A DNA stretch of 64,000 nucleotides from a virus, in IMG/VR virus record IMGVR_UViG_3300045988_163643, positions 96,001 through 160,000 of that record. One strand, written 5' to 3'. A program made the position numbers and the translations under genes. Below, piece by piece: positions 5,526 through 26,862 of this stretch. Numbering within the stretch: the stretch's first letter is position 1; the number at the start of each line of letters is the position of its first letter. Under the pieces are notes generated by a model. It saw only the letters and a list, made by a program, of their open reading frames with translations, was not told the origin of the DNA and searched no databases.

Positions 5526-6221
5526 TTATATTTTATATCTTAATTTGTCATTATTGTAATTTTGTAATAACTCATTTTGTGTTAACTTCCCTTGATATAA
5601 TCGAATTGCTTTTATATTACCCTGATAAAAATTAGAGTTCGACCCATTTCTACCTATATATGAACCTTTTGTATTATCAAAATAGTCTATAGTTTGGCTG
5701 TTTTTAGGTATGGACTCCATATTTATGTATAAACTATTATTATATTTATGCGTTTCGTCATAAACTTCAGCTGTTATGATTCTATTATGTCCCTGGAACG
5801 GACTTATTTCAAAACCGTTATCGTTATAGGATGATATAAAAGCCTTAAAAGTATAATACCCAAAACTAGCACAACTAATGAAAATTGGTTTAACCATTGT
5901 ATTACCTTCATTTGTTACATCAGCTATTATTTGTAAGGTCATACATTCTTTGTTAGTAATACAACTACTAAATTTATCTAAATCTATTAGAGTTAGACAT
6001 CCACCCTGTTTAATGTGTACATTACCAGCAGTAAATATAATATTATCATTATCAACAGAAAAATCGTTATTATTACCGGAAATATCTTCCCATATTTTTG
6101 TATTTGCATTAAACCCATTTCTCGTATTATATAAACTGTCCAAATTTAAGATTAAATTTTCTTGTACATATCCCAAAGAATTATTCATTAATAATTTTTT
6201 ACTCATACTGTATAACACCAC
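5526..6221 (-). CDS. LamG/concanavalin-like domain protein, putative fibre tip or receptor-binding component
   Basis: C-terminal GNIKAIRLYQGKLTQNELLQNYN resembles the Laminin_G_3 signature; overlaps the upstream fibre gene. Confidence 0.5.
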   Translation of the reverse strand: MVLYSMSKKLLMNNSLGYVQENLILNLDSLYNTRNGFNANTKIWEDISGNNNDFSVDNDNIIFTAGNVHIKQGGCLTLIDLDKFSSCITNKECMTLQIIADVTNEGNTMVKPIFISCASFGYYTFKAFISSYNDNGFEISPFQGHNRIITAEVYDETHKYNNSLYINMESIPKNSQTIDYFDNTKGSYIGRNGSNSNFYQGNIKAIRLYQGKLTQNELLQNYNNDKLRYKI

Positions 6222-7476
6222 CCAACCATTCTGTTACATATGTGAAAATAAATTCATATGTTTTATTAGCTAATATAGTTGGTGTATTCCCATTTTGCCA
6301 TTTGCAAGCTGGTAGTGTTAATATTAAATCTGTTGTTGTACTAAAAAATAAATGAATTTCTGTAAAATAAGTAACTGTTGGTAATGTAATTTCAGTACCA
6401 TCTACAATAGTAGTAGTTTGATATTTATCTTTTGTTAATGTTAAAGTAGTACCTACTATATTAGTAGTTAATAGAGTATCTTTAACTTTATCATCTACAT
6501 ATTTTTTAGTAGTTAAATCTTTATCTTCAGTAGGTGTACCTTCTTGAGATAATTTACCTGCAAACCAAGCATTACCATTCCAATCCAAAGTATGTGCATT
6601 AGACCTTTTATTATATTCCCCATTACCTACTATGTGAGCATATTTATTAGCAGTATCTTCTATATTATATTTACCTTGCACATGTTGATTTTCAGAAGAA
6701 GCTTTAGTATTATAACCTTCTGCATGTGAAGTTTCACCTGAAGCTGTTGTACCACCACCTTCTGCATGTGAACCGTCACCTGAAGCTGTTGTATAATCAC
6801 CTTCTGCATGTGAAGATTCACCTGAAGCTACTGACTGACTACCTTCAGCGTGTGAACCGTCACCTGAAGCTGTTGTGCTAGCACCTTCCGCATGTGAATC
6901 ATTACCTGAAGCTGTTGTGCCTCCACCTTCCGCATGTGAATACCCACCTGAAGCTGTTGTACCACCACCTTCTGCATGTGAACAATCACCTGAAGCTATT
7001 ACACTACTACCTATAGCACTACTTCCTGCACCTATATCTCCTGCTCTTCCTAAACTTATACTATTTTGCAATACTAAATCAGTTTCTAAATACTTATTAT
7101 CTAAATATTTAACTTCTTCTTCATAAATAACTAAATCAGTAAAAGTATCTGTAGTATCAGTTGTATTTATTTTATCGATAACTAATATCATATTAGTTGA
7201 ATCATTATATGCTTGTATAATATAATTACCTATACCGCATGCAATACCATTGCCCAGTCCTTCACTTATTAATAAACTACATAATTTCTTACTACCTAAA
7301 AATTCTATATAATATCTTCTATCTTTATTAATAGAAGCATTATTTACAGTAATTTCATCATCTATTACTACATTACTAGCAGGTATAGTAGCTAATACTT
7401 TACTAGAAATAGTTTTTATTTCACTATTATTATTATTATTTCCATTGGTTTTATTATCTTCTCTAATAAACCCCAT
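6199..7476 (-). CDS. tail fibre protein with Hep/Hag (YadA-head)-like SHAEG repeats
   Basis: ORF 6199..7494; third ATG (7476) preferred because AAGGAG lies 9 nt upstream; about eight 14-aa repeats SHAEGxxTxASGxx. Confidence 0.65.
   Translation of the reverse strand: MGFIREDNKTNGNNNNNSEIKTISSKVLATIPASNVVIDDEITVNNASINKDRRYYIEFLGSKKLCSLLISEGLGNGIACGIGNYIIQAYNDSTNMILVIDKINTTDTTDTFTDLVIYEEEVKYLDNKYLETDLVLQNSISLGRAGDIGAGSSAIGSSVIASGDCSHAEGGGTTASGGYSHAEGGGTTASGNDSHAEGASTTASGDGSHAEGSQSVASGESSHAEGDYTTASGDGSHAEGGGTTASGETSHAEGYNTKASSENQHVQGKYNIEDTANKYAHIVGNGEYNKRSNAHTLDWNGNAWFAGKLSQEGTPTEDKDLTTKKYVDDKVKDTLLTTNIVGTTLTLTKDKYQTTTIVDGTEITLPTVTYFTEIHLFFSTTTDLILTLPACKWQNGNTPTILANKTYEFIFTYVTEWLGGVIQYE
6700..7000 (-). 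repeat. tandem 42-nt coding repeats (about 8 copies) in the fibre gene
   Basis: recurring CTGCATGTGA...CACCTGAAGCTGTTGT on the plus strand. Confidence 0.7.
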
Positions 7477-7645: not shown

Positions 7646-9958
7646 ATGGGTAAACTTATAAGATTAGATAATCCTATTGAAATAGAATTTACTTTGGATA
7701 AAAAGGTATATAAAAGTCCTAATAGTAACTTTATGATATTAAGAGTATTTAGTGATACAATGGAAATTAAACCTTACTTAAACCCTATATATAATAATGT
7801 TAGTATGAAAGTAAATACAGTAGGTGAAATAAAATATAAAGTAAAATATAAAGCTAAAGTAACTGAATTAGAATATGATGGAAAATGGGGATATTCAATC
7901 AAAGGACAAGAGATAATACCTTCTGACTTTTCAGCAGATTCCATTAATGATGATAACACAATGTTAAATTTTATAGAATTATTTATCGGTGAAAGCATAG
8001 CAGATAAATTAAAAAATGTAATTGGCATATGTGATATAATAAAAAATAAAAATACCGATGAACTATTAAAAGTACGTGGAATAGGAGAAAAGACAGTAAA
8101 TAAAATATATAATTCTTATCAAGAGAATGTTGAAAATGCACATTATCTTATAACATTAAAACAATTAGGATTTACAGATAATGCTATAAATAAATTAAAC
8201 TCAGTATATGATAAAAACTTATATGAAGCATGTCAACAAATAAAAGAGAATATATTTGAATTAGTGTTTAAAGGATTTAGATTAGATATTATAGACAATA
8301 TATTCTTAAGCAAAATGGAGGGCGACAAAAGAGATGAAAGAAGATTAGAATGTTATACTTATAAAGCTATTAATGATGTATTATATGAAGACTTTGAAAG
8401 TTTTATAAGTATTAGTAGATTTATGAGATTACCAATAATAGAGAATACAGTAGATAATGTCGGAGATGAAATATTTAATAAATGTATAAACAAATTAATA
8501 AAAGATAGAAAAATTTATATCATAGAAGATAAATATATAACAACTTATGGTATTTATAATTGTGATGTTAATCTATATAGAAATTTAAGAAGATTAATAA
8601 ATGGAGATAACAAAAGTAATGTAGACATAGATATAGATAAAGAAATAGATTATGAAGAAGAAAGATTGGGAGTAAAATTAAACAAAGGACAAAGAAATTG
8701 TGTTAAATCTGTATTAACTCATAACATATCTTTATTAACAGGTGGTGGAGGTGTTGGTAAGACTTTCACATTAAACATAATATTAAACATAATGGATAGA
8801 TTATATGAACCATTCTTCCCTACTTTAGTAGCTTTAAGTGGTAAAGCTAGTGGAGTATTAGCTGAATCAACTAATAGAGAAGCAAGTACAATTCATAGAG
8901 CATTAGGTTTCTCAGGTGGATTTTTTATGTATGATGCAACCAATCCATTAAAAACTGATATGTTAGTTATAGATGAAGTTTCTATGGTATCAAATGGATT
9001 AATGTTAAGTTTATTAAGTGCTATTGAAACTGGAACTAAAATATTATTTATAGGAGATGAAAAACAATTAACTAGTATTGGACATTCTAATACTATAAAT
9101 GATTTAAATAAATTACCAATAAATAAATGTCAATTAAATGAACCTATGAGACAAGCGATGAAAAGTGGTATATTAAATGTATGTACTGATATAAGAAATG
9201 ATAAGAATCCATTTGTAAATAAAAAATTTGCATTATATGGTGAATTAAAAGATATGTCAGTTACTATAGGTGATGATAAATATTGGGAAATGATTAATGA
9301 TTATGTAGAAAATTTTGATGTTAATAATAAATTAGATTATACAGTTTTAGCTTGTACTAAAAAAGAAACAAGTAGAATAAATATAGATATTCAAAACGAA
9401 TTAATAAAAAAAGGTAAACTTAATAAAGACAGTAATTATATAGAAATTAGTACTGACCTTAAGGAAGATGATAAGAAAGTTAAAATGAAAGTATATCCAG
9501 GAAGTGTATTACTTATAACAACAAATAAATATAACTTATTATCTGAAGAAGATTATTATAATAATAGAAAAGACGGAAAAAAATGTTTATTCAATGGTAA
9601 CACAGTAATAGTAAAAGAAATATATTCTGATGCAATTAAAGTTAGTTTCAATAATGAAAACTTTATAATTCTTAGTGAATTTTATGATATATTAAGTGGT
9701 GGCTATAGCTACTCAATACATCGTTCTCAAGGAAGTACTATAAAATATTTATATATCTACTTAAGCAACACATATGTTGTAAAAGAAATGCTATTAGTAA
9801 ATGAAGCATTATATACTGCTGTATCAAGAGGGAAAACAAGTTGTAAATTATATGCAGAAAATTATATTATATTGACAAAAGCAATAAACAACAGAGAGAT
9901 AAACAAAAGACAAACAGTATTAGAATTATTAATAGATGGAAAAATAGCTCTTAAATAA
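7646..9958 (+). CDS. RecD/RecD2-like SF1 DNA helicase
   Basis: Walker A GGGGVGKT; Walker B MLVIDEVSMV; SIHRSQGST motif; helix-hairpin-helix LLKVRGIGEKTVNKIY. Confidence 0.85.
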   Translation: MGKLIRLDNPIEIEFTLDKKVYKSPNSNFMILRVFSDTMEIKPYLNPIYNNVSMKVNTVGEIKYKVKYKAKVTELEYDGKWGYSIKGQEIIPSDFSADSINDDNTMLNFIELFIGESIADKLKNVIGICDIIKNKNTDELLKVRGIGEKTVNKIYNSYQENVENAHYLITLKQLGFTDNAINKLNSVYDKNLYEACQQIKENIFELVFKGFRLDIIDNIFLSKMEGDKRDERRLECYTYKAINDVLYEDFESFISISRFMRLPIIENTVDNVGDEIFNKCINKLIKDRKIYIIEDKYITTYGIYNCDVNLYRNLRRLINGDNKSNVDIDIDKEIDYEEERLGVKLNKGQRNCVKSVLTHNISLLTGGGGVGKTFTLNIILNIMDRLYEPFFPTLVALSGKASGVLAESTNREASTIHRALGFSGGFFMYDATNPLKTDMLVIDEVSMVSNGLMLSLLSAIETGTKILFIGDEKQLTSIGHSNTINDLNKLPINKCQLNEPMRQAMKSGILNVCTDIRNDKNPFVNKKFALYGELKDMSVTIGDDKYWEMINDYVENFDVNNKLDYTVLACTKKETSRINIDIQNELIKKGKLNKDSNYIEISTDLKEDDKKVKMKVYPGSVLLITTNKYNLLSEEDYYNNRKDGKKCLFNGNTVIVKEIYSDAIKVSFNNENFIILSEFYDILSGGYSYSIHRSQGSTIKYLYIYLSNTYVVKEMLLVNEALYTAVSRGKTSCKLYAENYIILTKAINNREINKRQTVLELLIDGKIALK

Positions 9959-16221: not shown

Positions 16222-17010
16222 ATGACTGAAAAAGAATTTGTAAGGGCATTGGTAGCAGAATGTAAAAGGAATGGATATAGAATATCGCAACCTAATGTTA
16301 AAAAAGTAATAAAATCTTTAAGAAATTTGACATTTAAAACTTGTTTAGAAGGAGAAGAAGTTAGATTGTTAGGGTTTTGCACATTTACACCTGAAGAAAC
16401 AAGAGATGTAATCCTACCAAATGGAGAACACAATAAAAAGAGAACTGTCATAAGAGTAAAATTAACAGAAGTATTTAAAAGAAGGTTTAGAGATACAGCA
16501 GTATTAGTAAGAGATGGAGCTATGGATATATCAGATATTCATTATAATATGTTCTTTGAAGATGATGAGGAATATGATGATTTGTTTGATGATTTAGATG
16601 AAGAAATAGAGGAAATAGAAGAACAGATAGCAGAACTAGAAGATGAAGACGAAGAAGATGAAATTGACGACGACGACGATGATGAAGACGATAATATAGA
16701 AGATGATGAAGATGAAGAATTGGATAGCGAAGAAGATGAAGATGATACTGATGATGACAATATAGACAATGAAGAAACTGTTGTTGATGAGGAAGAAGAT
16801 GACAACTTAAACACAGAAGAAATGGAAGAAAATAACGATGATGAAGATACAGATGATGATACTGATTCTGAAGACGAGGAAGAAGATGAAACCGACGATG
16901 AAGATGATGAATCAGATGAAGAAGAAGAAAATTCTGAAACAGAAGAACTAATAGAAAAATTAAATAGTTTGTATGAAGAATTTAAAAGTAATTTAAGAGG
17001 TGGAAAATAG
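16222..17010 (+). CDS. HU/IHF-fold DNA-binding protein fused to an approximately 150-aa poly-Asp/Glu tail
   Basis: N-terminal 90 aa fit the Bac_DNA_binding pattern (GEEVRLLGFCTFTPEETRD...P.G....R.VIRVKL); residues about 110-255 are almost entirely D/E. Confidence 0.6.
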   Translation: MTEKEFVRALVAECKRNGYRISQPNVKKVIKSLRNLTFKTCLEGEEVRLLGFCTFTPEETRDVILPNGEHNKKRTVIRVKLTEVFKRRFRDTAVLVRDGAMDISDIHYNMFFEDDEEYDDLFDDLDEEIEEIEEQIAELEDEDEEDEIDDDDDDEDDNIEDDEDEELDSEEDEDDTDDDNIDNEETVVDEEEDDNLNTEEMEENNDDEDTDDDTDSEDEEEDETDDEDDESDEEEENSETEELIEKLNSLYEEFKSNLRGGK

Positions 17011-17671: not shown

Positions 17672-17941
17672 GTGATAACAAGTCCAAAAAGATTAAGAAG
17701 TAAACATGGGGTATTTAAAAAAGAATATGATATGATAGAATATCCTGAAGGTGTAGATATACAATTAGCTTATGAATTTAATGTTTATAACTTAGGTGAA
17801 GCAGATGTAGAAATACAATTTAATGAAGAAGGAGATTTCTTAACCTTAGAACCAGGTGAAGGATTTGAAGTTTCTCTACCTATAACTCATGCTGTAGTTA
17901 AAACAGATAATAGTAGGTTAAAATATTCTTATTGGTTTTGA
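17672..17941 (+). CDS. hypothetical protein (89 aa)
   Basis: GTG start after GAGGTGA; ORF track. Confidence 0.45.
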   Translation: MITSPKRLRSKHGVFKKEYDMIEYPEGVDIQLAYEFNVYNLGEADVEIQFNEEGDFLTLEPGEGFEVSLPITHAVVKTDNSRLKYSYWF

Positions 17942-17958
17942 TTTTTTCAAAAAAAGAG

Positions 17959-17987
17959 TTTACAAAAGTGGGTAAAAATGTTATATT
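17959..17987 (+). promoter_or_regulatory. sigma-A-type promoter with extended -10, different from the phage consensus
   Basis: TTTACA 17959-17964, 17-nt spacer ending TGT, TATATT 17982-17987; opens the non-coding island. Confidence 0.5.
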
Positions 17988-18008
17988 ATATATATAAGAT
18001 AAAATTAA

Positions 18009-18115
18009 AATAAGGCTAAAACAATTATTCCTTCTATATATCAAAAAACAATTAAAATTAGATTTTTCACCGTCTTACGGTGAAGTTAAAAAGTATAATT
18101 GTTAATCCCCTTATT
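18009..18115 (+). ncRNA. structured RNA module 1 of 4 (unclassified family)
   Basis: outer stem AATAAGG/CCTTATT; CTA; inner stem AACAATTAT/ATAATTGTT; TTCCTTCT directly after the 5' arm; internal hairpin TTCACCG-TCTTA-CGGTGAA; AATCC before closure. Confidence 0.55.
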
Positions 18116-18129
18116 AATAAATAAAATTA

Positions 18130-18211
18130 TGTTTGGCTATATTAATTATTCCTTCTAATTGGTGATAATAAAGGTATCGATTGTAAAAGTATAATTAATG
18201 ATTTCCAAACA
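18130..18211 (+). ncRNA. structured RNA module 2 of 4
   Basis: outer stem TGTTTGG/CCAAACA; CTA; inner stem TATTAATTAT/ATAATTAATG; TTCCTTCT; ATTT before closure. Confidence 0.55.
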
Positions 18212-18261
18212 ATATAATTTTATAATAAATATTTCATATACATCACCCCCTTTTATATATT

Positions 18262-18294
18262 ATATCCACTCAGTTCGTTTGAGTGGATATTTTT
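18262..18294 (+). terminator. rho-independent terminator between modules 2 and 3
   Basis: 10-bp stem ATATCCACTC/GAGTGGATAT, 9-nt loop, TTTT. Confidence 0.7.
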
Positions 18295-18365
18295 CGAAAG
18301 GCTATAATCAGTTTTCCTTCTATATATAATACATGTGGATGATTTAAATTGATTAATTCCTTTTG
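18295..18365 (+). ncRNA. structured RNA module 3 of 4
   Basis: outer stem CGAAAGG/CCTTTTG; CTA; inner stem TAATCAGTTT/AAATTGATTA (one G-U); TTCCTTCT; ATT before closure. Confidence 0.55.
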
Positions 18366-18370
18366 ATAGT

Positions 18371-18462
18371 ATGTCGCATTATATATGGCTATGTTTACTC
18401 TTCCTTCTTTTCTATTGGCTGAGATTTAGAATAAACAATTTCCATTAATTATAATGCGACAT
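18371..18462 (+). ncRNA. structured RNA module 4 of 4, with an extra 12-bp clamp
   Basis: clamp ATGTCGCATTAT/ATAATGCGACAT; outer ATGG/CCAT; CTA; inner stem TGTTTACTC/GAATAAACA (one mismatch); TTCCTTCT; ATTT. Confidence 0.5.
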
Positions 18463-18554
18463 TTTATTATTTATATGTTGAATAGATGGTTATAATAATC
18501 TTTATCTCCATGTATTGAATATATAAAATATTAAAATTAAGGAGTTGGTATTTA

Positions 18555-20660
18555 ATGAAAGAAATGAACACTATATATTTAAGAAGAAGAAATAAGGTAA
18601 TAGTTAATCTTAATAGTGATGATAGTGAAAAAGTGAGCGAACAAATAATAGCAACTTCATTAGTAAATTTAGAAAGTTATGGGTATACATTTTCAGAAAA
18701 ACTTATGGAAGAATTAAAATTATTATCTGTTGAACAATATATGGATTTTTATAATATGATAACATCAATAATTAAAGAATTAGTAGGAGTAGATAAAATT
18801 ACAGAACCTATGTATCCTAATTTTCCACAGCAAGTAATGGAAATGGATGAAGTTGAATTATATCTTAATGCAATAATTCATTATATTACTGATGGTCAAT
18901 TAGTTCCTGAGTATGAGAAAAAAGAAAGATTTCCTTTAATAGGAAATTATGACTTAACTGTTATAGACTTAGGAAGTGTTGAAGATTTCAATACAATATT
19001 TACTAATTTAGTATCATCTAAAGTAAGTATATCTGCTTCAGATAAATTAGATGTATCATGGTTTTTAAAAAAATTCAATAAAGAGTATTTAAAAGAAATC
19101 ATGCCTAAAGAAATTCCATTTAAAGAAATATTAAGTTATGTTACTATGGAATTATGGTATGGTGAATATGATAGTGACATTAAAGAAATATTAATACCTT
19201 ATTATAAAACAGCAACAGATGTCTTAAGATTAGCAACAGCTTTAAGCGATGGAGATGAAAGTCTATCAGAGTCTTGTTGTTATAATTCATTTAAAAGAAA
19301 AGATAGAAGAATACTATTAACAATGTTAGAAAATGCAAACAACATAGAAGAAGATATGCTTAGATATAAAGACAGATGGATAAGATTAGGAGAAGTATTG
19401 CATCCAGGTGAATATAAGAAATTTAAAAAAGTTAATAGAGCATTTGACAAAATAAGAAATGGTAAAAAAATAGATACATTTAATAGCAATATAGAAAAGG
19501 CATTTGAAGAAGAAGATTTAGATAAAGTTCTTGAATTATTAACTAGTAGACCTGGTGAATTTGCTAGAAGATTAGACAGGACTCTTAGATTAGCAATAAA
19601 TAAAGATGAAAGCAACAAAATAGTATTAGCATTTAGTCAAATAGCTGAAAAAATTCCTACACCTCTTTTATTACAGATTAGAAGTTATTTCATAAAAAGA
19701 AAAGAAAATAACAGCTTAAGAGTTTTCTCAATAAAAGGTTCAGGAAAATTATATGGTAAAGAAAATGACTTAAAAGAATTAGATGAAGTTACTTGTACTA
19801 GAATAGAAAACATTTGTAATCTTAGATTAATGAATGAATATTCTAAAAGAGATTATTTGGGTAAAGTTTATATAGATGAAGAATTAAAAGATTATATAGC
19901 TCCAATGTCTCAAAGAAATTCCAGTAAAGCATTAAAATCAGTTGCAAAAGGTAGTAAGATGAAAATAAAAGATGGAGCAAAATTTTTAAGAAATTTTGTA
20001 TATTGGAAACAAAAAGACGGCTATAGAGTAGATTTAGACTTGAGTGCAGTGTGTTTTGATAATGAATTAGAAGTTATTGATGAAATATGGTATCGTAATT
20101 TAAGAGGTTACAAAACAAATATTTGTCATAGTGGAGATTTTGTATCAGCCAAAGATGGAGCAAGTGAATTCATTGACATTGATATTGAAAAACCTAAAGA
20201 TTGTGGAGTTAGATACATCTTAGTTTCAATAAATAGTTTTACAGAATATCGCTTTAGCGAATTAGAAGATTGTTTTATGGGTTATATGGAATTAGACAAT
20301 AATACAACTGGTGAAGTATTTGAACCAAAAGCAGTAGCAAATAAATCTGATTTAAGTTCTGATTGTGAACAAGTAATTGCTAATATAATAGATTTAGAAG
20401 AAATGTGTATTTATTGGGCAGATGTCCCAGTAACAAAGAGTTTTGGATGTAACGACATAAAATTTAATAGAAAAAATTTAACATATACTTTAGAATCAAT
20501 AATAAACATATGCAAACCTAATTTATACGATGTAATATTTATGAATGCAATTGCTAGAGGAGAAATAGTAGATAATAAAGAAGAAGCAGAAGTAGTCTAT
20601 TCAATAGATGGAGACGTTACACCATTCGATGTAGATATAATTGTCGGAGAATATATATAA
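18555..20660 (+). CDS. large protein with a C-terminal TerD-like domain (701 aa)
   Basis: VDLDLSAVCFDNE...NICHSGDFVSAKDGASEFIDIDIEKP...RYILVSINSF matches the TerD-family pattern; the N-terminal 480 aa look helical and carry no motif I recognise. Confidence 0.6.
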   Translation: MKEMNTIYLRRRNKVIVNLNSDDSEKVSEQIIATSLVNLESYGYTFSEKLMEELKLLSVEQYMDFYNMITSIIKELVGVDKITEPMYPNFPQQVMEMDEVELYLNAIIHYITDGQLVPEYEKKERFPLIGNYDLTVIDLGSVEDFNTIFTNLVSSKVSISASDKLDVSWFLKKFNKEYLKEIMPKEIPFKEILSYVTMELWYGEYDSDIKEILIPYYKTATDVLRLATALSDGDESLSESCCYNSFKRKDRRILLTMLENANNIEEDMLRYKDRWIRLGEVLHPGEYKKFKKVNRAFDKIRNGKKIDTFNSNIEKAFEEEDLDKVLELLTSRPGEFARRLDRTLRLAINKDESNKIVLAFSQIAEKIPTPLLLQIRSYFIKRKENNSLRVFSIKGSGKLYGKENDLKELDEVTCTRIENICNLRLMNEYSKRDYLGKVYIDEELKDYIAPMSQRNSSKALKSVAKGSKMKIKDGAKFLRNFVYWKQKDGYRVDLDLSAVCFDNELEVIDEIWYRNLRGYKTNICHSGDFVSAKDGASEFIDIDIEKPKDCGVRYILVSINSFTEYRFSELEDCFMGYMELDNNTTGEVFEPKAVANKSDLSSDCEQVIANIIDLEEMCIYWADVPVTKSFGCNDIKFNRKNLTYTLESIINICKPNLYDVIFMNAIARGEIVDNKEEAEVVYSIDGDVTPFDVDIIVGEYI

Positions 20661-20728: not shown

Positions 20729-20770
20729 ATAAGTAAAGGATAATAGTAGATATAAAAGGAGAGATTGTAT

Positions 20771-22018
20771 ATGTTAGATGAAAAGTTCTTAAAAAGAGAA
20801 GATGAAACATTAGAAGAATATCAACTGAGATTATCCGTAATGAAACTAAAAGATGGAGAAGACATAGAATGGCAAGATATTAAAGAATTATTAAACAGTG
20901 ATGAACATAGAGATACGCTTAGAAGAAAAGGAAAAGGTCTTGTCATGGCTTATGATATATATGAAGAAAAGATAGCAAAATTAGAAGATGAATATTATTA
21001 TAAACTTAAAAAAATGAAAGAAAAAGTCGATGAAGAAATAGAAGATAAAAGATTGAGAGACATACAAAATAAAGTAAATCAATTGCAAAAAGAAAAACAA
21101 AAACTTAAAGATGAAAGAAATCATATAAATGCAGAAAGAAGAATAGTAGCTAGAGTAGAGCATTTAATTGAATGCACTAAAGATGAAATAGAAGAATTAA
21201 ATAAAACTAAACCATTACTTGGAAATATTGATTTAGTAAAAACAGTTTCAGAAAAAGAAGGAGTAGTTTTATTATCAGATATACATTATGGAGCTGAAAC
21301 AGATAATATATTAGATTGTTATAATCCACAAATATGTGAAAAGAAATTAAATTATTATTGTAAAAAAGTAATAGAATATGGAGAGTTAAACAATCTTTCT
21401 ACAATTCATATGTTGGGATTAGGTGATTTTATATCAGGATTAATACATAATGTAAATAGATTTGATTCAAGACTATTAATAACAGAACAAGTTGTAAAAA
21501 TAAGTGAGCTTATAGCAGAATTTATAAATGAATTAAGTAAACATTTTTATGTTAAATATGCAATAATAAATGGTAATCATAGTAGAATAGTTGCTGAAAA
21601 AGATAATAGTAGAGAAGAAGAGAATTTTACAGAATTTATTAGACCATTTGTAATGAATAGATTAGCTGAAAATAAAAATGTAGAATATATAAATCATAAA
21701 GATTGTGGAATTATTGAAGTGGATGTTTTAGGAAATAAATGTTTAGCAATACATGGAGATAATGATAGAGATAGAAATTTAGATAGATTAATACAAATGT
21801 ATGATTATCCTATTGATTATATATTTAGAGGACATTTCCACCAATCAAAACAATTTGATGTTAATAATACTACAGTTGTTTGTTCAGGTGCATTCGGAAG
21901 TGAGGGTTATGCAAAGAAAGGAAGACTTTATAATAAACCTATTCAAAAATTCCTAGTATTCAATAAAGAAGGAATGATATGTTCTTATGACATAAATTTA
22001 AATAATTATAAAAAATAA
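20771..22018 (+). CDS. calcineurin-like metallophosphoesterase with an N-terminal coiled coil
   Basis: LLSDIHYG, GLGDFISG, INGNHS, AIHGD and RGHFH motifs in canonical order; ATG 20771 preferred over TTG 20765 on SD spacing. Confidence 0.75.
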   Translation: MLDEKFLKREDETLEEYQLRLSVMKLKDGEDIEWQDIKELLNSDEHRDTLRRKGKGLVMAYDIYEEKIAKLEDEYYYKLKKMKEKVDEEIEDKRLRDIQNKVNQLQKEKQKLKDERNHINAERRIVARVEHLIECTKDEIEELNKTKPLLGNIDLVKTVSEKEGVVLLSDIHYGAETDNILDCYNPQICEKKLNYYCKKVIEYGELNNLSTIHMLGLGDFISGLIHNVNRFDSRLLITEQVVKISELIAEFINELSKHFYVKYAIINGNHSRIVAEKDNSREEENFTEFIRPFVMNRLAENKNVEYINHKDCGIIEVDVLGNKCLAIHGDNDRDRNLDRLIQMYDYPIDYIFRGHFHQSKQFDVNNTTVVCSGAFGSEGYAKKGRLYNKPIQKFLVFNKEGMICSYDINLNNYKK

Positions 22019-22082: not shown

Positions 22083-22134
22083 TGTAAGTTAATGTGGAAG
22101 GACGGTTTCACAGCTTACAATTTCCTTCTTTTTT
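22083..22134 (+). terminator. compound hairpin followed by a T run
   Basis: TGTAAG...CTTACA enclosing GTGGAA/TTTCAC, then TTCTTTTTT. Confidence 0.4.
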
Positions 22135-22185
22135 ACTATACTATTCTTATAATAATCTATATTTACTTTAATATCTCTCCGATTT

Positions 22186-22223
22186 GGGTATCATAGTCCT
22201 TTCAACTATGATACCCTTTTTTT
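22186..22223 (+). terminator. rho-independent terminator
   Basis: 11-bp stem GGGTATCATAG/CTATGATACCC followed by T7. Confidence 0.75.
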
Positions 22224-22250
22224 ATTATATAAAACAGAAAGGAGAAAAAT

Positions 22251-22732
22251 ATGGCAAAAGCAAAAAAAGAAATAAAGAAAATAATATGTACTACTTGTGG
22301 AAGAGAATTGCCTGAAAAAGATTTTGGTAAATCTTACTCATTTAGAGACAAACTAAATGGAAGGTTACCAATTTGCAAAGACTGTTGTGCTAGTTTATAT
22401 GATAAGCTAATGGTAGATTATCAAGATGAAATGAAAGCATTATATAGATTTTGTATGATATTAGATTTATATTTTTCTAAGGATACAGTTATGGGATTAA
22501 TAAGTAAGAATAGAAATTCCGAAAGTAATCTTGGATATTTATATGTATTAAAATATAACTTAGTACAATATAAAAATAAAACATTCCAAGATACAACGGC
22601 ATTTGTAAATATATTTGGTATGACTGAAGAAGAAATGGAAGAAGCATTATATTTGAATACTGAAAAAACAAAAGAAGAAATAGAAAGAAAAACTAAAAAA
22701 ATAGTTACACCAGAAGTAATCAAACGTTGGGG
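22251..22732 (+). CDS. terS: putative terminase small subunit, exon 1 of 2
   Basis: gene immediately upstream of and overlapping terL; N-terminal CxxC...CxxC; the ORF-track tail 22733-22754 is read-through into the intron. Confidence 0.5.
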
Positions 22733-23101
22733 TAATTGCCCCCTATGTTTATAAAAAACATAGCAAACCTTTTGAATTGCTGGAAACCCCTAAAGCTTAA
22801 CACACTACAACGTGGCTAGAAATGGCGAACGTGAATGTTACGAAAGTAGAAAAAAGTTGTTAAGATGATATATGGTTAAATCCTAAGTATCTACAATAAT
22901 GGGCAATCAGCAACTAAGATTCTAAGTGATGATTTGTCATATGAATAAAGTCCAACGACTAGATAGGAATATCGTACACTCAAGCGAGTGGAAGTGGAAG
23001 GTATCCTATAAATATAGGATAATGATATAGTCTAATCTCATATGAAAGTATGAGCAGTCGAAAGACGGTATGTATGTAGCGAATACATATGAATATAAAT
23101 G
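22733..23101 (+). mobile_element. group I intron, family 1, ORF-less (369 nt; boundaries +/-1)
   Basis: P1 GGGG(T)/(G)CCCC; conserved blocks AATTGCTGG, CCTAAAGC, GGTTAAATCCTAAG, CAACGACTAG, GATATAGTCT; helix CTTAACA/TGTTAAG; removal joins the two ORFs in frame (999 nt). Confidence 0.8.
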
Positions 23102-23618
23102 TTCTGATTTAGAGTTAGACGATTATATTTTTCTCGAAGATAGATATAATCAGATGCTTTTAGCCTATGATGATAAGAATCCTTCATCCCTGTGGTCATA
23201 TCAAGAAATATGTATGAATTATTTACTCCTTAGAAAAGATAGGGGAAATGTTCAACTTCAAAAAAGTATCCAAGAAATTAATAGTAAATTACAAGCAGAT
23301 TGTAAAATGAAGTTATCGCAAATAGATAATGATGATGATGATAATGCTTGTTTTGGAAAGTTTATAGATAAAATAGAATTATATGAACCATGTAATAAAA
23401 AATTACCATTCTTTGAAGATATAGATGGAATAAGACAATACTTAAAAAGATGGTTCGTTTTGCCTTTTGCGAAACAGTGGAAACTAGCTAAAAATGATGT
23501 ATTAGAAGGAGAGGAAGGAATAGAAGATTATGAGGATGTAGATAAAATATATAATGAACAAAATAAGAATAAAGCTGAAGTAGAGAATGAAGTAGGTGAG
23601 GAAGACAATGACAAGTAG
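23102..23618 (+). CDS. terS: putative terminase small subunit, exon 2 of 2
   Basis: in frame with exon 1 after intron removal; the ATG at 23070 in the ORF track lies inside the intron. Confidence 0.5.
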
Positions 23619-24158
23619 TGTAAAAGAAAATATTGAAGAAGAAAAAATACTTTCTGACGAAGTCATGAAAAGTCCTCATAAAAAAAGAAGAAATTTATCC
23701 CAAAGAAAAAAAGATAGATTAAATGAAGGTATGAAAATATGGACTGCATTTTATCGTTTGAATATCCATAGATTCGCACTGGATTTTTTGGGACTTAATT
23801 TATATCCGTTCCAAATTATATTGCTTTATATGATGAATATAATGTATAGCACTTGCCTAATATGTGCCAGAGGGTTATCGAAATCATATATGACAGCAAT
23901 ATTTCTTTGTTGTAAAGCAATATTATATCCAAATAGTTTAATTGTAGTTTCTTGTTCAACTAAGGAACAAGCCAGAAATCTTATAAAGGAGAAGATAGCT
24001 AAAGAACTATGTTCTCAGTCGAAAATGTTAAATAGAGAAATTGCTAAAGTAGTCACCGGTACTAATGAAACAGTGGTAATCTTCAATAACGGTAGTACTA
24101 TTCAAGCAGTAAATGCTTCTCAAAATACAAGAGGTCTTCGTTGCCATGTACTCGTGGT
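23608..24158 (+). CDS. terL: terminase large subunit, exon 1 of 3
   Basis: Walker-A-like region and ...RGLRCHVLVV ending just before the Walker B DE; ATG 23608 (or GTG 23596) after GGTGAGG. Confidence 0.8.
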
Positions 24159-24481
24159 AGTTATCTGCCTAGATATACATATATATAAAAGTATATCCGT
24201 AATTGGGTAAAATCGGTAAAAGCTAAGTTCTTATAGAATATGCCAATACCGAGTTAACTGATAAAATTAAAAAGTTATCAGCAATGTAGAGCATAGTAGG
24301 TGAACCTTGCGAACTATTATTAGATAGTTCTTTTTAATTGCAAGAATATAATCTTACCAAGAGTACCCAACACCTTATTGTATAAGGTGAAAATGTATGC
24401 CAAGCTTGTAGGAAACTATAAGAGGTGGATGTGTGAATTGACACACTATTAATAGATAAAAAGCTCCACGATAAAACTTTG
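24159..24481 (+). mobile_element. group I-type intron, family 2, ORF-less (323 nt)
   Basis: exon ends GTGGT, intron ends G; helices covary with its sister intron (TTGGGTA/TACCCAA, CTGATAA/TTATCAG, CTTGC/GCAAG); removal gives ...HVLVVDEYRMIQ. Confidence 0.75.
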
Positions 24482-24645
24482 AGATGAGTACAGAATGATA
24501 CAAGGAGGTTTTGATACTTTAAACTCAGTATTAAGACCATTCTTAAACTGTGTTAGAATACCAAAATTTAAAAATAGAGATGATGGAAAATACGCAGATT
24601 ATCCAACTGAGGAAAACCAAGAAATTTACTTAAGTAGTGCGTGGT
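24482..24645 (+). CDS. terL: terminase large subunit, exon 2 of 3 (164 nt)
   Basis: encodes (V)DEYRMIQGGFDTLNSVLRPFLNCVRIPKF...EIYLSSAW, carrying the Walker B DE missing from exon 1; not called by the ORF track. Confidence 0.75.
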
Positions 24646-24751
24646 AAATTCGTGCCACTTTATATAGCGATATATAAAACAAATTGGGCAAAATCGGTCA
24701 TAGTAAATCGTGAGATTAAGCTGATAAGAGAGACTAAGTATTGTTTAAAAT

Positions 24752-24780
24752 TTTACTTTTAATAAAAAATATAGTATAAT
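24752..24780 (+). promoter_or_regulatory. phage-consensus promoter inside the intron, driving the endonuclease
   Basis: TTTACT 24752-24757, 17-nt spacer, TATAAT 24775-24780. Confidence 0.55.
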
Positions 24781-24805
24781 ATAAGTAATGGGGGTGAATA
24801 TTAAA

Positions 24806-25537
24806 ATGAATAAAATAACTACAGAAATAGCATTAAAACGAATTAATGATAAAATAAAAGAAACTAATACAACATTATATGTTGTTAATTTTGAATATGT
24901 AAAAAAGAAAAGTATAATTTATATGAAATGTAGAGTATGTGGAAAAGAAGTTGAAAGAGATTATTGGAGATTTATTCATGCAGGTGGAAAATGTGAATGC
25001 CAATATAAATATAGAAGATGGACTGAAGAAAGATGCATAGAATTAATAAAAAATAATGATTATAATGATGAATATGAATTTGTAAATTTCAATACAGGAG
25101 CTAATATTACAATAAAACATAACATATGTAATCATGAATTTACTAGAGCTTCTTGGAATATAAAAGACAATGGTTTAAAATGTCCATCATGTTATCCACT
25201 TGATAGTGCAGGAGAATTGAATATTGAGAATTATTTAAAATCAAAAAATATTTTATATCAAAAACAGAAAAGATTTAAAGGATGTAAAAATAAAAAGACA
25301 TTACCATTTGATTTTTATTTACCACAATATAATTGTTGTATAGAATTCGATGGCGAACAACATTTTAAACCTGTCGAACACTTAGGTGGAGAAAAACACT
25401 ATAATAATACAGTCATAAATGATGGAATAAAAAATGAATTTTGTAGAAAAAATAATATACTTTTATTAAGAGTACCTTTTTATAAAATAAATGATGTAAA
25501 TGATATTATTGAAAATTTTTTAAACAATATAAGTTAA
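24806..25537 (+). CDS. intron-encoded homing endonuclease: 2 zinc-ribbon repeats plus a Vsr/DUF559-like nuclease domain
   Basis: C-terminal LPFDFYLPQYNCCIEFDGEQHF...ILLLRVPFY shared with three other intron ORFs; ATG 24806 matches the SD spacing of its paralogs (the ORF track starts at 24788). Confidence 0.7.
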   Translation: MNKITTEIALKRINDKIKETNTTLYVVNFEYVKKKSIIYMKCRVCGKEVERDYWRFIHAGGKCECQYKYRRWTEERCIELIKNNDYNDEYEFVNFNTGANITIKHNICNHEFTRASWNIKDNGLKCPSCYPLDSAGELNIENYLKSKNILYQKQKRFKGCKNKKTLPFDFYLPQYNCCIEFDGEQHFKPVEHLGGEKHYNNTVINDGIKNEFCRKNNILLLRVPFYKINDVNDIIENFLNNIS

Positions 25538-25777
25538 TACCGAGGTAAGATAGAAAATTAAAAAGTTCTATCCACCGTAACGCATAGAGATTGAACCTTT
25601 GTAAGAACTATTATATAATAGTTCTTTTTTGATTACAAAGAATAAAATATCTCCAAGAGTGCCCACTTCTATATTGTATAGAAGAAAATATATGCTGGAC
25701 TGGGTATGAATCGACATACCATAATGCGAGGAAACTCCCAGAACTAGAGGATAAAAAGCCTTTAGGGTAACAAAACG

Positions 25778-26862
25778 TTGAGAATCATTGGAGTTACGAC
25801 CTTTATTCTTCTCATGTTAAGAAAATGTTAGCAGGTGATGATTATTTTGTATGTAATCTACCTTATCAATTATCTGCCTATCATGGAATATTAACTAAAA
25901 AAAGAATACAAGATATTTTATCAGATGAGAATATGTCGGAAATATCATTTACAATGGAATTTGAAGCATTATTTTATTCTGATAAAGATACTAGTTATTT
26001 TAAATCAAGTGATATATTACCTTGTAGAACATTGGAATATGCATGGTATCCTCCAACACCAGAGGAATATTATAGAAATAAAAATAAAGAGAAAAAGAGT
26101 TATTATTTAAAGAGATTAAATGATAAAGAACTTAGAGTAATCAGTTGTGATATAGCTTTAATGAACAGTAAAAATGGGCATGACAATGATAATGCCGTAT
26201 TTACTTTTATAAGAAGTATTCCAAAGAATCAAAATTATATATCACAAGTTTTATGGCAACAGACTCACGAAGGATATAAAGCTAAGCAATTAGCATTAAA
26301 TATAAAAAGATTATATTTTGATACTCAAAGTGATTATATAGTACTAGATACTGCCGGTAGTGGTATATCTGTATTAGATGAGTTAGGTGAATACACAACT
26401 GATGTAGAAAGAGGAATAGTTTATCCTCCATTAAAAGCAATGAATGATGAAAAATATGAAGAACGTTGTGGTTATTCAGAAGCACAAAAATCTATATTTT
26501 GTGTTAATGGTAGTACAAAGTTTAACCATGAAATTGCAGTAACTCTTAAAACAGCATTCCAAAATAAAACCATTAGATTATTAAAAACACAATTTGAAGC
26601 AGATGATTTTATAGAGGGATATAATAAAATGTCTCCTAAAGAACAAGCTGATAAATTGATGCCTTATGTTCAAACTTCTTTAATGCAAGATGAAATAACT
26701 CAATTGGAATATGAAGTAAAAGATTCTTATATTAAACTTTATGAAACAACAGGTAAACGTAAAGATAGATATTCAAGTTTAGCTTATGGTAATTATTTTA
26801 TAAGAGAAAGAGAAAAAAAATTAAAGAAAAAGAAAAAAGGTGGATTAGCTAATCTATGGTAG
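25778..26862 (+). CDS. terL: terminase large subunit, exon 3 of 3 (nuclease half)
   Basis: junction gives SSAW-FENHWSYDLY; exons total 1,800 nt (599 aa); the ORF-track start 25825 is internal. Confidence 0.8.

Follow-up and report, generated by a model that had tools for sequence, protein, structure and literature searches.

The 64,000-nucleotide (nt) stretch of viral DNA analysed here, positions 96,001 to 160,000 of IMG/VR record IMGVR_UViG_3300045988_163643 (hereafter the window), had no DNA-level match among deposited phages. On its + strand, between the stop codon of an 89-amino acid (aa) open reading frame (ORF) at 17941 and the start codon of a 701-aa ORF at 18555, lies a non-coding island (17942-18554). 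Within 18009-18462 this island holds four + strand RNA modules, all of one architecture. The 701-aa ORF (18555..20660, + strand), referred to below as the partner gene, encodes a protein of the TerD family. The subject of this report is the RNA family to which these modules belong and its coupling to that gene.

A reading of the window made from its letters alone (the sequence-only reading) had described the modules as four paralogous structured RNAs, and this description holds. Within the 64 kb, the signature of the modules, GGCTA-N8-12-TYCCTTCT, was matched at four sites, all on the + strand between 18014 and 18408; dinucleotide shuffles give an expectation of 0.02 for the window. The octamer TTCCTTCT by itself shows no enrichment in the window (9 copies, ~5 expected). 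Each module folds well below the energies of its dinucleotide shuffles (z between -3.2 and -6.5), and the stems that had been quoted are present and were recovered by a stem finder. The island contains just short ORFs of 25-48 aa, and its indels between related phages are not multiples of three. These two observations rule out a coding region, so that the island is non-coding, as had been claimed.

Module 1 (18009..18115, + strand; z = -4.8) has the outer stem AAUAAGG/CCUUAUU, followed by CUAA, a 9-bp inner stem, UCCUUCUA, a 66-nt insert with a GC hairpin, and AAUCC. It is atypical in its CUAA, the length of its inner stem, its AAUCC and the size of its insert, and has every stem. Module 2 (18130..18211, + strand; z = -3.2) consists of the outer stem UGUUUGG/CCAAACA, CUA, a 10-bp inner stem, UCCUUCUA, a 41-nt insert and AUUU. 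Module 3 (18294..18366, + strand; z = -3.8) follows the same order with (U)CGAAAGG/CCUUUUG(A), CUA, a 10-bp inner stem, UCCUUCUA, a 31-nt insert and AUU. Module 4 (18371..18462, + strand; z = -6.5) exists as had been proposed, but its outer stem, which had been read as four pairs, is longer and interrupted: AUGUCGCAUUAUA/UAUAAUGCGACAU encloses a core at 18384-18446 made of UAUGG/CCAUU, CUA, the inner stem, UCCUUCU and AUUU. This module ends ~80 nt ahead of the AAGGAG Shine-Dalgarno (SD) sequence of the partner gene. The first four bases of UCCUUCUA are predicted to be mostly unpaired (P = 0.13-0.30), and the remainder of the variable insert is the fastest-evolving part between close relatives.

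Two signals in the island suggest that modules 1 and 2 form a transcription unit. A sigma-70-like promoter (17959..17987, + strand; TTTACA, a 17-nt spacer with TG, TATATT) is the top-scoring promoter-like site of the region, with 10 of 12 matches and an extended -10, and would drive modules 1-2. An intrinsic terminator follows Module 2 (18262..18294, + strand), with a 12-bp hairpin at 18262-18290 (minimum free energy -16 kcal/mol) and a U run. Both had been noted in the sequence-only reading, and both are kept, together with modules 1 and 2, in three IMG/VR contigs of 174-204 kb (L001-L003) whose downstream protein is ~90% identical to that of the window. The promoter-like site is unchanged in all three, and the terminator shows one compensatory change, its closing pair going from A-U to G-C. 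In the orthologues of Module 1, which score 34-45 bits with R1, a covariance model built from other genomes' copies, the inner stem is kept via two compensatory changes (A-U to G-C and C-G to U-A). Module 2 is kept save for an indel in its variable insert, and the variable inserts in general differ by indels across the window and these contigs. Module 3 has lost its interior in L001-L003, with the outer stem alone left, which makes this copy dispensable. The interior of Module 4 is deleted in L001, and in L002 and L003 the module is degenerate (motif UUUCUUCU, 28 bits with R1). Since only modules 1 and 2 are kept in these relatives, we regard them as the maintained copies and modules 3 and 4 as expendable.

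The architecture recurs far outside the window. An exact-pattern scan of IMG/VR with GGCTA-N8-12-TTCCTTCTA returned arrays of 2-8 matches in several contigs of 100-460 kb, and a more specific 17-base version of the motif gave 84 exact-match stretches. Over all fetched DNA, a simple stem finder identified 197 distinct modules with a common plan. The outer stem, which is 5-13 bp long (mode 7) and ends GG/CC, is followed by CUA and an inner stem, which is 10 bp long in 156 of the 197, with U-R as its first pair and C-G and U-A as its last pairs. The 5' arm of this stem is followed by UCCUUCUA, an insert of 18-105 nt and a U ahead of the 3' arm; NUUU (CUUU, AUUU or CUCU) and CC complete the module. 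UCCUUCUA is near-invariant across phyla, the same motif being found in genomes of 22-60% GC.

The stem sequences differ from copy to copy and remain complementary. Covariation was found in 12 of 15 pairs, with 356 double-change cells, among 63 diverse trimmed cores. Because these cores had been selected for pairing, two checks free of that selection were added. Perfect stems were present in 56 of 109 pattern-only matches, compared to 8 of 2180 when the downstream sequence was shuffled. A MAFFT alignment of 16 orthologous Paenibacillus leaders, made from sequence only, was 99.4% paired and contained 7 compensatory pairs, compared to 2.0 +/- 0.9 after shuffling and at most 1 in slid controls. 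Compensatory stems, as had been read from the four copies of the window, are thus supported. In both the 63 cores and the Paenibacillus alignment, conserved U-G wobbles correspond to C-A mismatches on the opposite strand. Since these wobbles are strand-specific, the structure belongs to the + strand RNA and not to the DNA, and a DNA-level element such as a cruciform or recombination site is unlikely.

In the window, R1 detected Module 2 (50.9 bits, E = 1.4e-11), Module 4 (43.4 bits) and Module 3 (40.7 bits) and gave no other credible match; it missed Module 1, because of the long insert and atypical loops of this copy. An intergenic segment of the window at 22100-22230 contains a lone UUCCUUCU at 22122, followed by a strong hairpin and a T run (GGGTATCATAG...CTATGATACCC TTTTTTT), which is probably just a terminator. 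We considered and rejected a fifth module at 22122: the motif stands alone, without stems, and scores 10.7 bits with R1. Applied to the viral loci, the covariance-model search, which the sequence-only reading had suggested, found 222 modules in 85 loci, with stems that vary everywhere yet stay paired and arrays of up to 4 + 4 copies flanking the gene (L054).

No catalogued family accounts for these RNAs. The sole match of Rfam 15 to the window is a group I intron at 22724-23054. Scanning the island itself gave nothing at the gathering threshold and only noise at a permissive E <= 10, in keeping with the earlier statement that the modules belong to no named RNA family; in the window, none of the ROOL, GOLLD, HEARO, raiA and self-cleaving ribozyme models reached gathering. 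Seven other loci with typical modules gave only tRNA and transfer-messenger RNA (tmRNA) matches with Rfam 15. ARAGORN found no tRNA or tmRNA gene in the window and the Rfam tRNA model (RF00005) had no window match, so that no cloverleaf was detected and the modules were rejected as tRNAs or tmRNAs. A decoy of the tRNA-Arg(UCU) anticodon arm, or an intron-containing mini-tRNA, had been suggested by CUUCUAA and the 7-bp outer stems; this was dropped, because the outer stems vary in length between 5 and 13 bp and no copy closes its loop into a 7-nt anticodon loop. No description of the RNA or of its pairing with the TerD-family protein was found in Rfam 15 or in the searchable literature, covering TerD and RNA, SCO0854/MXAN_6230, RNAs of tRNA arrays and non-coding RNAs of jumbo phages. 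We conclude that the modules are a widespread, previously uncatalogued family of structured non-coding RNA.

Although the modules are not tRNAs, many independent members of the family carry a tRNA-shaped insert. Its fold consists of a T arm, an acceptor stem with a capping loop and a D arm, and an anticodon-like stem closes it. ARAGORN called 16 of 17 long inserts tRNA once they had been re-permuted at the capping loop, and none when they were left unrotated. Such inserts are found in L052 (- strand, 855-990 of the reverse complement), L054:7198-7333, L011:8095-8228 and 8871-9001, L261:5148-5278, L152, L172, L190, L246 and L272; three of the 17 are bacterial (L246, L261 and L272). The tRNA-like domain of YrlA has the same topology, namely T arm, closed acceptor and D arm (Chen et al. 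2014, PMC4201824). In the L261 insert, positions 23-87 of the 114 in the Rfam YrlA model are aligned, with 33.8 bits against a gathering threshold of 69, and the Ro60-binding stem lies outside this alignment. Some family members thus carry a YrlA-type tRNA-like domain, in line with the loose comparison to Y RNA made in the sequence-only reading; all four window modules lack it.

Many viral modules also lie inside tRNA arrays, and one lies beside a tmRNA. Of 41 viral loci, 17 have tRNAs in the DNA that was fetched; module and tRNA have the same orientation in all 52 pairs lying no more than 1 kb apart. In the 344-kb phage contig IMGVR_UViG_3300032254_000001 (L141, L136 and L102; ~24-49 kb), the gene and an adjacent module lie at ~24-26 kb, and an array of at least 8 tRNA genes, ~18-22 kb away from the gene, contains further modules. 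Phage tRNA clusters are also known to have stable RNAs without an assigned function in or near them, such as the T4 species 1 and 2 RNAs, ROOL and GOLLD. The modules resemble these RNAs in co-occurring with tRNA genes, but no Rfam model of them matches the modules, which are small, repeated and tied to one protein family.

The tie to one protein family was examined from both sides, with 84 viral loci picked by the RNA motif alone and 80 bacterial loci picked by protein similarity alone. The bacterial loci were taken from a protein scan with at least 594 confirmed relatives, and the RNA was looked for in these loci with 3-kb flanks. They come from Paenibacillus, Niallia, Priestia, Clostridium, Lachnospiraceae, Acidobacteriota, Armatimonadota, Cyanobacteria, Chloroflexota, Bacteroidota and Alphaproteobacteria. 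In the RNA-selected set, tblastn found homologues of the 701-aa protein (25-48% identity) in 64 of the 84 loci. In the protein-selected set the RNA was present in all 80, 74 by the strict finder and the other six by R1 (32-55 bits). The proteins of other window neighbours do not travel with the RNA, as judged by tblastn over all fetched loci.

The position of the modules follows the gene as well. Every bacterial module shares the gene's strand and lies either 5' of the start codon or 3' of the stop codon; most adjoin the gene, and a few lie further off within the 3-kb flanks. Most bacterial copies are situated in the 5' untranslated region (UTR), and many bacteria have a single module, or a module 3' of the gene. 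Of 66 viral modules, all 66 are on the gene's strand; the 39 that lie upstream are at a median distance of 125 nt, and the 27 that lie downstream at a median of 201 nt. Divergent modules adjoin ORF396 of Xanthomonas phage XacN1 (29 bits, with a GGCCA variant) and gp266 of Rhodococcus phage Weasels2 (17 bits), and ordinary Paenibacillus, Niallia and Priestia strains carry typical ones. In one Niallia circulans locus (L195), both modules are situated just past the stop codon (6090-6229), and the 819-nt stretch upstream of the TerD-family gene (L195:3182-4000) is free of genes and modules. The RNA is therefore near-obligately coupled to the gene for a TerD-family protein, and this co-occurrence strongly backs the earlier suggestion of a protein-binding RNA with a TerD partner, loosely like Y RNA with Ro.

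The partner protein consists of a helical N-terminal region (residues ~90-382), small alpha/beta parts and a TerD beta-sandwich (462-625) in an AlphaFold2 model with a predicted local distance difference test (pLDDT) score of 82. Its membership of the TerD family is given by both sequence score and fold: Pfam TerD (PF02342) matches residues 462-583 with 28.2 bits against a cut-off of 25.3, and the structures found by Foldseek in the PDB, among the best 50 matches listed, are TerD structures only, with 3ibz and 2qz7 at probability 1.00. The nearest NCBIfam model, NF041916 (the MXAN_6230/SCO0854 family, which is characterised by an N-terminal RING domain), scores 372 bits against a cut-off of 600 and is matched only over profile positions 177-757; the protein is thus related to this family but not a member. 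Full-length structural relatives occur in the cultured phages Lactobacillus LpeD and Campylobacter IBB35, and tblastn homologues in Rhodococcus phage Weasels2, Xanthomonas phages XacN1 and Xoo-sp13, Salicola phage SCTP-2 and others. An identity as Ro60 or another TROVE protein was rejected. Pfam found no TROVE domain in the partner and its homologues (29 proteins) even at E <= 5 and no vWA domain in the partner, a PDB sequence search did not find Ro60, and Ro60 is not among the best 50 Foldseek matches listed. PADLOC gave no defence-system match for the protein, and Pfam and Foldseek detected no nuclease or nucleic-acid-binding domain in it.

What is the RNA for? The explanation we favour, and consider somewhat probable, is that the modules are the RNA ligand cognate to the TerD-family protein whose gene follows them directly (18555-20660). 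From the observed structure, family, strand and gene linkage we infer physical binding, a ribonucleoprotein (RNP) function and the roles that would follow. Each module would be a bipartite scaffold, with a closing stem ending G-G/C-C and an asymmetric internal loop (CUA opposite NUUU), then exactly one helical turn (10 bp), then a junction with the near-invariant UCCUUCUA on its 5' side and U on its 3' side. The fixed 10-bp spacing would set both conserved elements on one face of the helix, which may serve as the protein-binding platform, and the fast-evolving 18-105-nt insert would project from the junction. In members where the insert is the permuted tRNA-shaped domain, it would serve as an adaptor or effector arm. 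For the phage of the window, we propose that modules 1-2 are made as a separate small RNA, from their own promoter to the terminator, which would put RNA in excess over protein; modules 3-4 would be part of the mRNA leader of the protein gene. Some bacteria have the module between the SD and the start codon, so that binding there probably also feeds back on translation. For binding assays, the mutant we name replaces UCCUUCUA by AGGAAGAU.

The arrangement would share its logic with Ro60 and Y RNA (YrlA), but neither its binding motif nor its protein is related to theirs. Like YrlA (RF02553) with Ro60/Rsr, the family consists of modular RNAs of ~60-140 nt with a closing-stem module and a variable arm; a large protein is encoded next to the RNA, which is often present in more than one copy, in bacteria and phages alike, and a subset of copies has a tRNA-shaped arm in the same permuted order. 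The conserved strand of the Ro60-binding stem of YrlA is GNCGAAN0-1G (PMC4201824). This strand is absent from the modules and replaced by GGCUA...UCCUUCUA...NUUUCC. The partner differs too, having neither TROVE nor vWA by Pfam nor a Ro60 match by Foldseek, and most modules have no tRNA-like domain. The modules are therefore Y-RNA-like in their modularity but fall outside the Y RNA family. The phage non-coding RNA array of the Minerva preprint is also a different system, linked to a reverse transcriptase. A more specific proposal, which we regard as possible but doubtful, is that the modules and the ~700-aa TerD-family protein form a second, independently evolved RNP of the Ro/Y-RNA type, in which the protein uses arrays of small scaffold RNAs, some with arms that mimic tRNA. 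Bacteria of many phyla would employ it in RNA or tRNA surveillance or repair, and jumbo phages would employ it to protect or manage translation while they infect. On this proposal, phage copies beside tRNA arrays might counter, for example, tRNA-targeting host defences.

Among the alternatives, the one that survives best, although we think it rather unlikely, is that the module acts purely in cis to regulate the TerD-family gene, either as a riboswitch or as a translational switch that depends on structure, and plays no part in a stable RNP. The prevalence of bacterial copies in the 5' UTR on the gene's strand would be expected of such an element, and the junction nucleotides are very highly conserved, as in an aptamer. 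The last module ends at most 15 nt from the start codon in 37 bacterial loci. In 28 of these, mostly from Paenibacillus, the module is preceded at 1-2 nt by a strong GAGAGGAGG, and the interval from module to AUG contains no SD (L199-L270, for example L216:2893-2997). The module in these loci is ~66-70 nt long, and the AUG follows it by 5-10 nt. Because the SD sits 5' of the module and none comes after it, the folded module would bridge this split ribosome-binding site (RBS) and join SD and AUG. Split RBSs bridged by a hairpin are known from phage T4 genes 38 and 25. In Paenibacillus, SD and AUG are likewise separated by folded RNA, and the closing stem of the module would bring them ~10 nt apart; the likeness is limited to some bacterial loci, and the intervening structure is a conserved family member and not an arbitrary hairpin.

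Several features of the family are nevertheless hard to reconcile with a cis element alone. One genus supplies nearly all of the 28 split-RBS cases. Some copies are located in 3' UTRs, with an outer stem and a U run that can double as a terminator (L261), up to eight copies flank one gene, and some copies lie inside tRNA arrays 18-22 kb away from it. In the window, a terminator separates modules 1-2 from the gene. Inserts of 18-105 nt, whole tRNA-like domains included, would be unusual for an aptamer core. Thus the evidence for a trans-acting RNA rather than a leader alone (own promoter and terminator, 3' UTR copies, flanking arrays and distant copies) is the broader, and the cis and trans observations both fit an RNA bound by its co-expressed protein.

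There are points that weigh against the modules being the cognate ligand of the TerD-family protein. The partner has no recognised RNA-binding domain, TerD being the only domain found by Pfam, NCBIfam and Foldseek. A purely cis-acting leader or terminator inherited with the gene would give equally tight linkage, and where a module lies between SD and AUG, as in many Paenibacillus, translational control alone could account for it. In close relatives, modules 3 and 4 are deleted or degenerate, so not all copies are needed. Finally, none of the four window modules has a tRNA-like domain.

The order of elements in the window invites comparison with type III toxin-antitoxin (TA) systems, in which an RNA array would neutralise a harmful TerD-family protein and the terminator would set the ratio of RNA over protein. 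Loci of the toxIN type have the order promoter, RNA repeats, terminator, protein gene, which is also that of the window, and the modules and the protein, like toxIN, cptIN and tenpIN, are a compact, self-contained two-part unit present in phages and chromosomes. We consider this alternative improbable. The units of these TA systems are near-identical direct repeats, whereas the modules are related in structure, with ~20 nt in common and every stem different. The protein is ~700 aa long with TerD and is not a ToxN-like RNase; it gave no PADLOC match, and no nuclease domain was detected. Many bacteria have a single module or a module 3' of the gene, and the tRNA-like inserts would be left unexplained.

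The sequence-only reading had also proposed an anti-SD regulator or sponge, in which an exposed UUCCUUCU pairs with mRNA RBSs or mimics the 16S 3' tail. The Firmicute 16S 3' end is UCCUUUCUA, which UCCUUCUA resembles; ~6 pairs are possible with AAGGAG, the first four motif bases are predicted to be mostly unpaired, as described above, and several copies would suit a sponge. The proposal started from the claim that AGAAGGA-type SDs are used throughout the genome, which is wrong. The window SDs are AAGGAG, GGAGA and GGAGG and AGAAGGA lies ahead of just 1 of 37 ORFs, so the premise fails. A real anti-SD would retain CCUCC. Moreover, the motif is invariant at 22% to 60% GC and across phyla, and CUA, the 10-bp ruler and NUUU are always present, although a pairing site would have no need of them. 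The invariance of UCCUUCUA and the obligatory linkage to one protein family are left unexplained, and we regard the proposal as very improbable.

We give the least credence of all to a guide-RNA-like array, in which the conserved scaffold would offer a hypervariable loop as guide to nucleic-acid targets of the protein: the variable loop is indeed the fastest-evolving part between close relatives and arrays place several different loops beside a large protein gene, but the stems also differ between copies, unlike CRISPR or TIGR repeats, many loops are structured hairpins or tRNA-like domains and not free single strands, and no nuclease or nucleic-acid-binding domain was detected in the protein.

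A few further features of the window were recorded. The group I intron at 22724-23054 (Rfam, 85 bits) interrupts an ORF that ends at 22754 and resumes at ~23070, within 22251-26862. In the same region, a large-terminase-like gene is seemingly in several pieces (23596-24210 and 25825-26862), with an endonuclease-like 249-aa ORF between them (24788-25537), which hints at a second intron or a homing-endonuclease insertion. A 262-aa protein (16222-17010) has an N-terminal HU/IHF-like domain (Pfam Bac_DNA_binding, 22.8 bits) and a tail of ~150 residues that is almost all Asp and Glu; a DNA mimic and a histone-like protein of the phage are possible identities. Just downstream of the partner gene, a calcineurin-like phosphoesterase (window 20765-22018; locus positions 6215-7465) is 93% identical in L003 and 59% identical in L001 and L002, and the genes flanking it are ~90% identical in all three, a pattern that suggests local mosaic replacement.

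If the modules are the cognate ligand of the TerD-family protein, a family that is annotated just as "TerD family" or "cytoplasmic protein", and that is found in at least 594 bacterial species and in many large phages, would gain its first functional handle in the form of an obligatory RNA partner. The modules would also add a new RNA family with unusually clean covariation. The YrlA-type tRNA-like arm would be graftable onto a different protein-binding module, which suggests tRNA mimicry as a reusable adaptor in bacterial RNPs. Because copies occur in XacN1, Weasels2, Paenibacillus, Niallia and Priestia, the question of RNA and protein is testable in culture. For the huge phages, the family would provide a concrete candidate for the small stable RNAs of their tRNA arrays.

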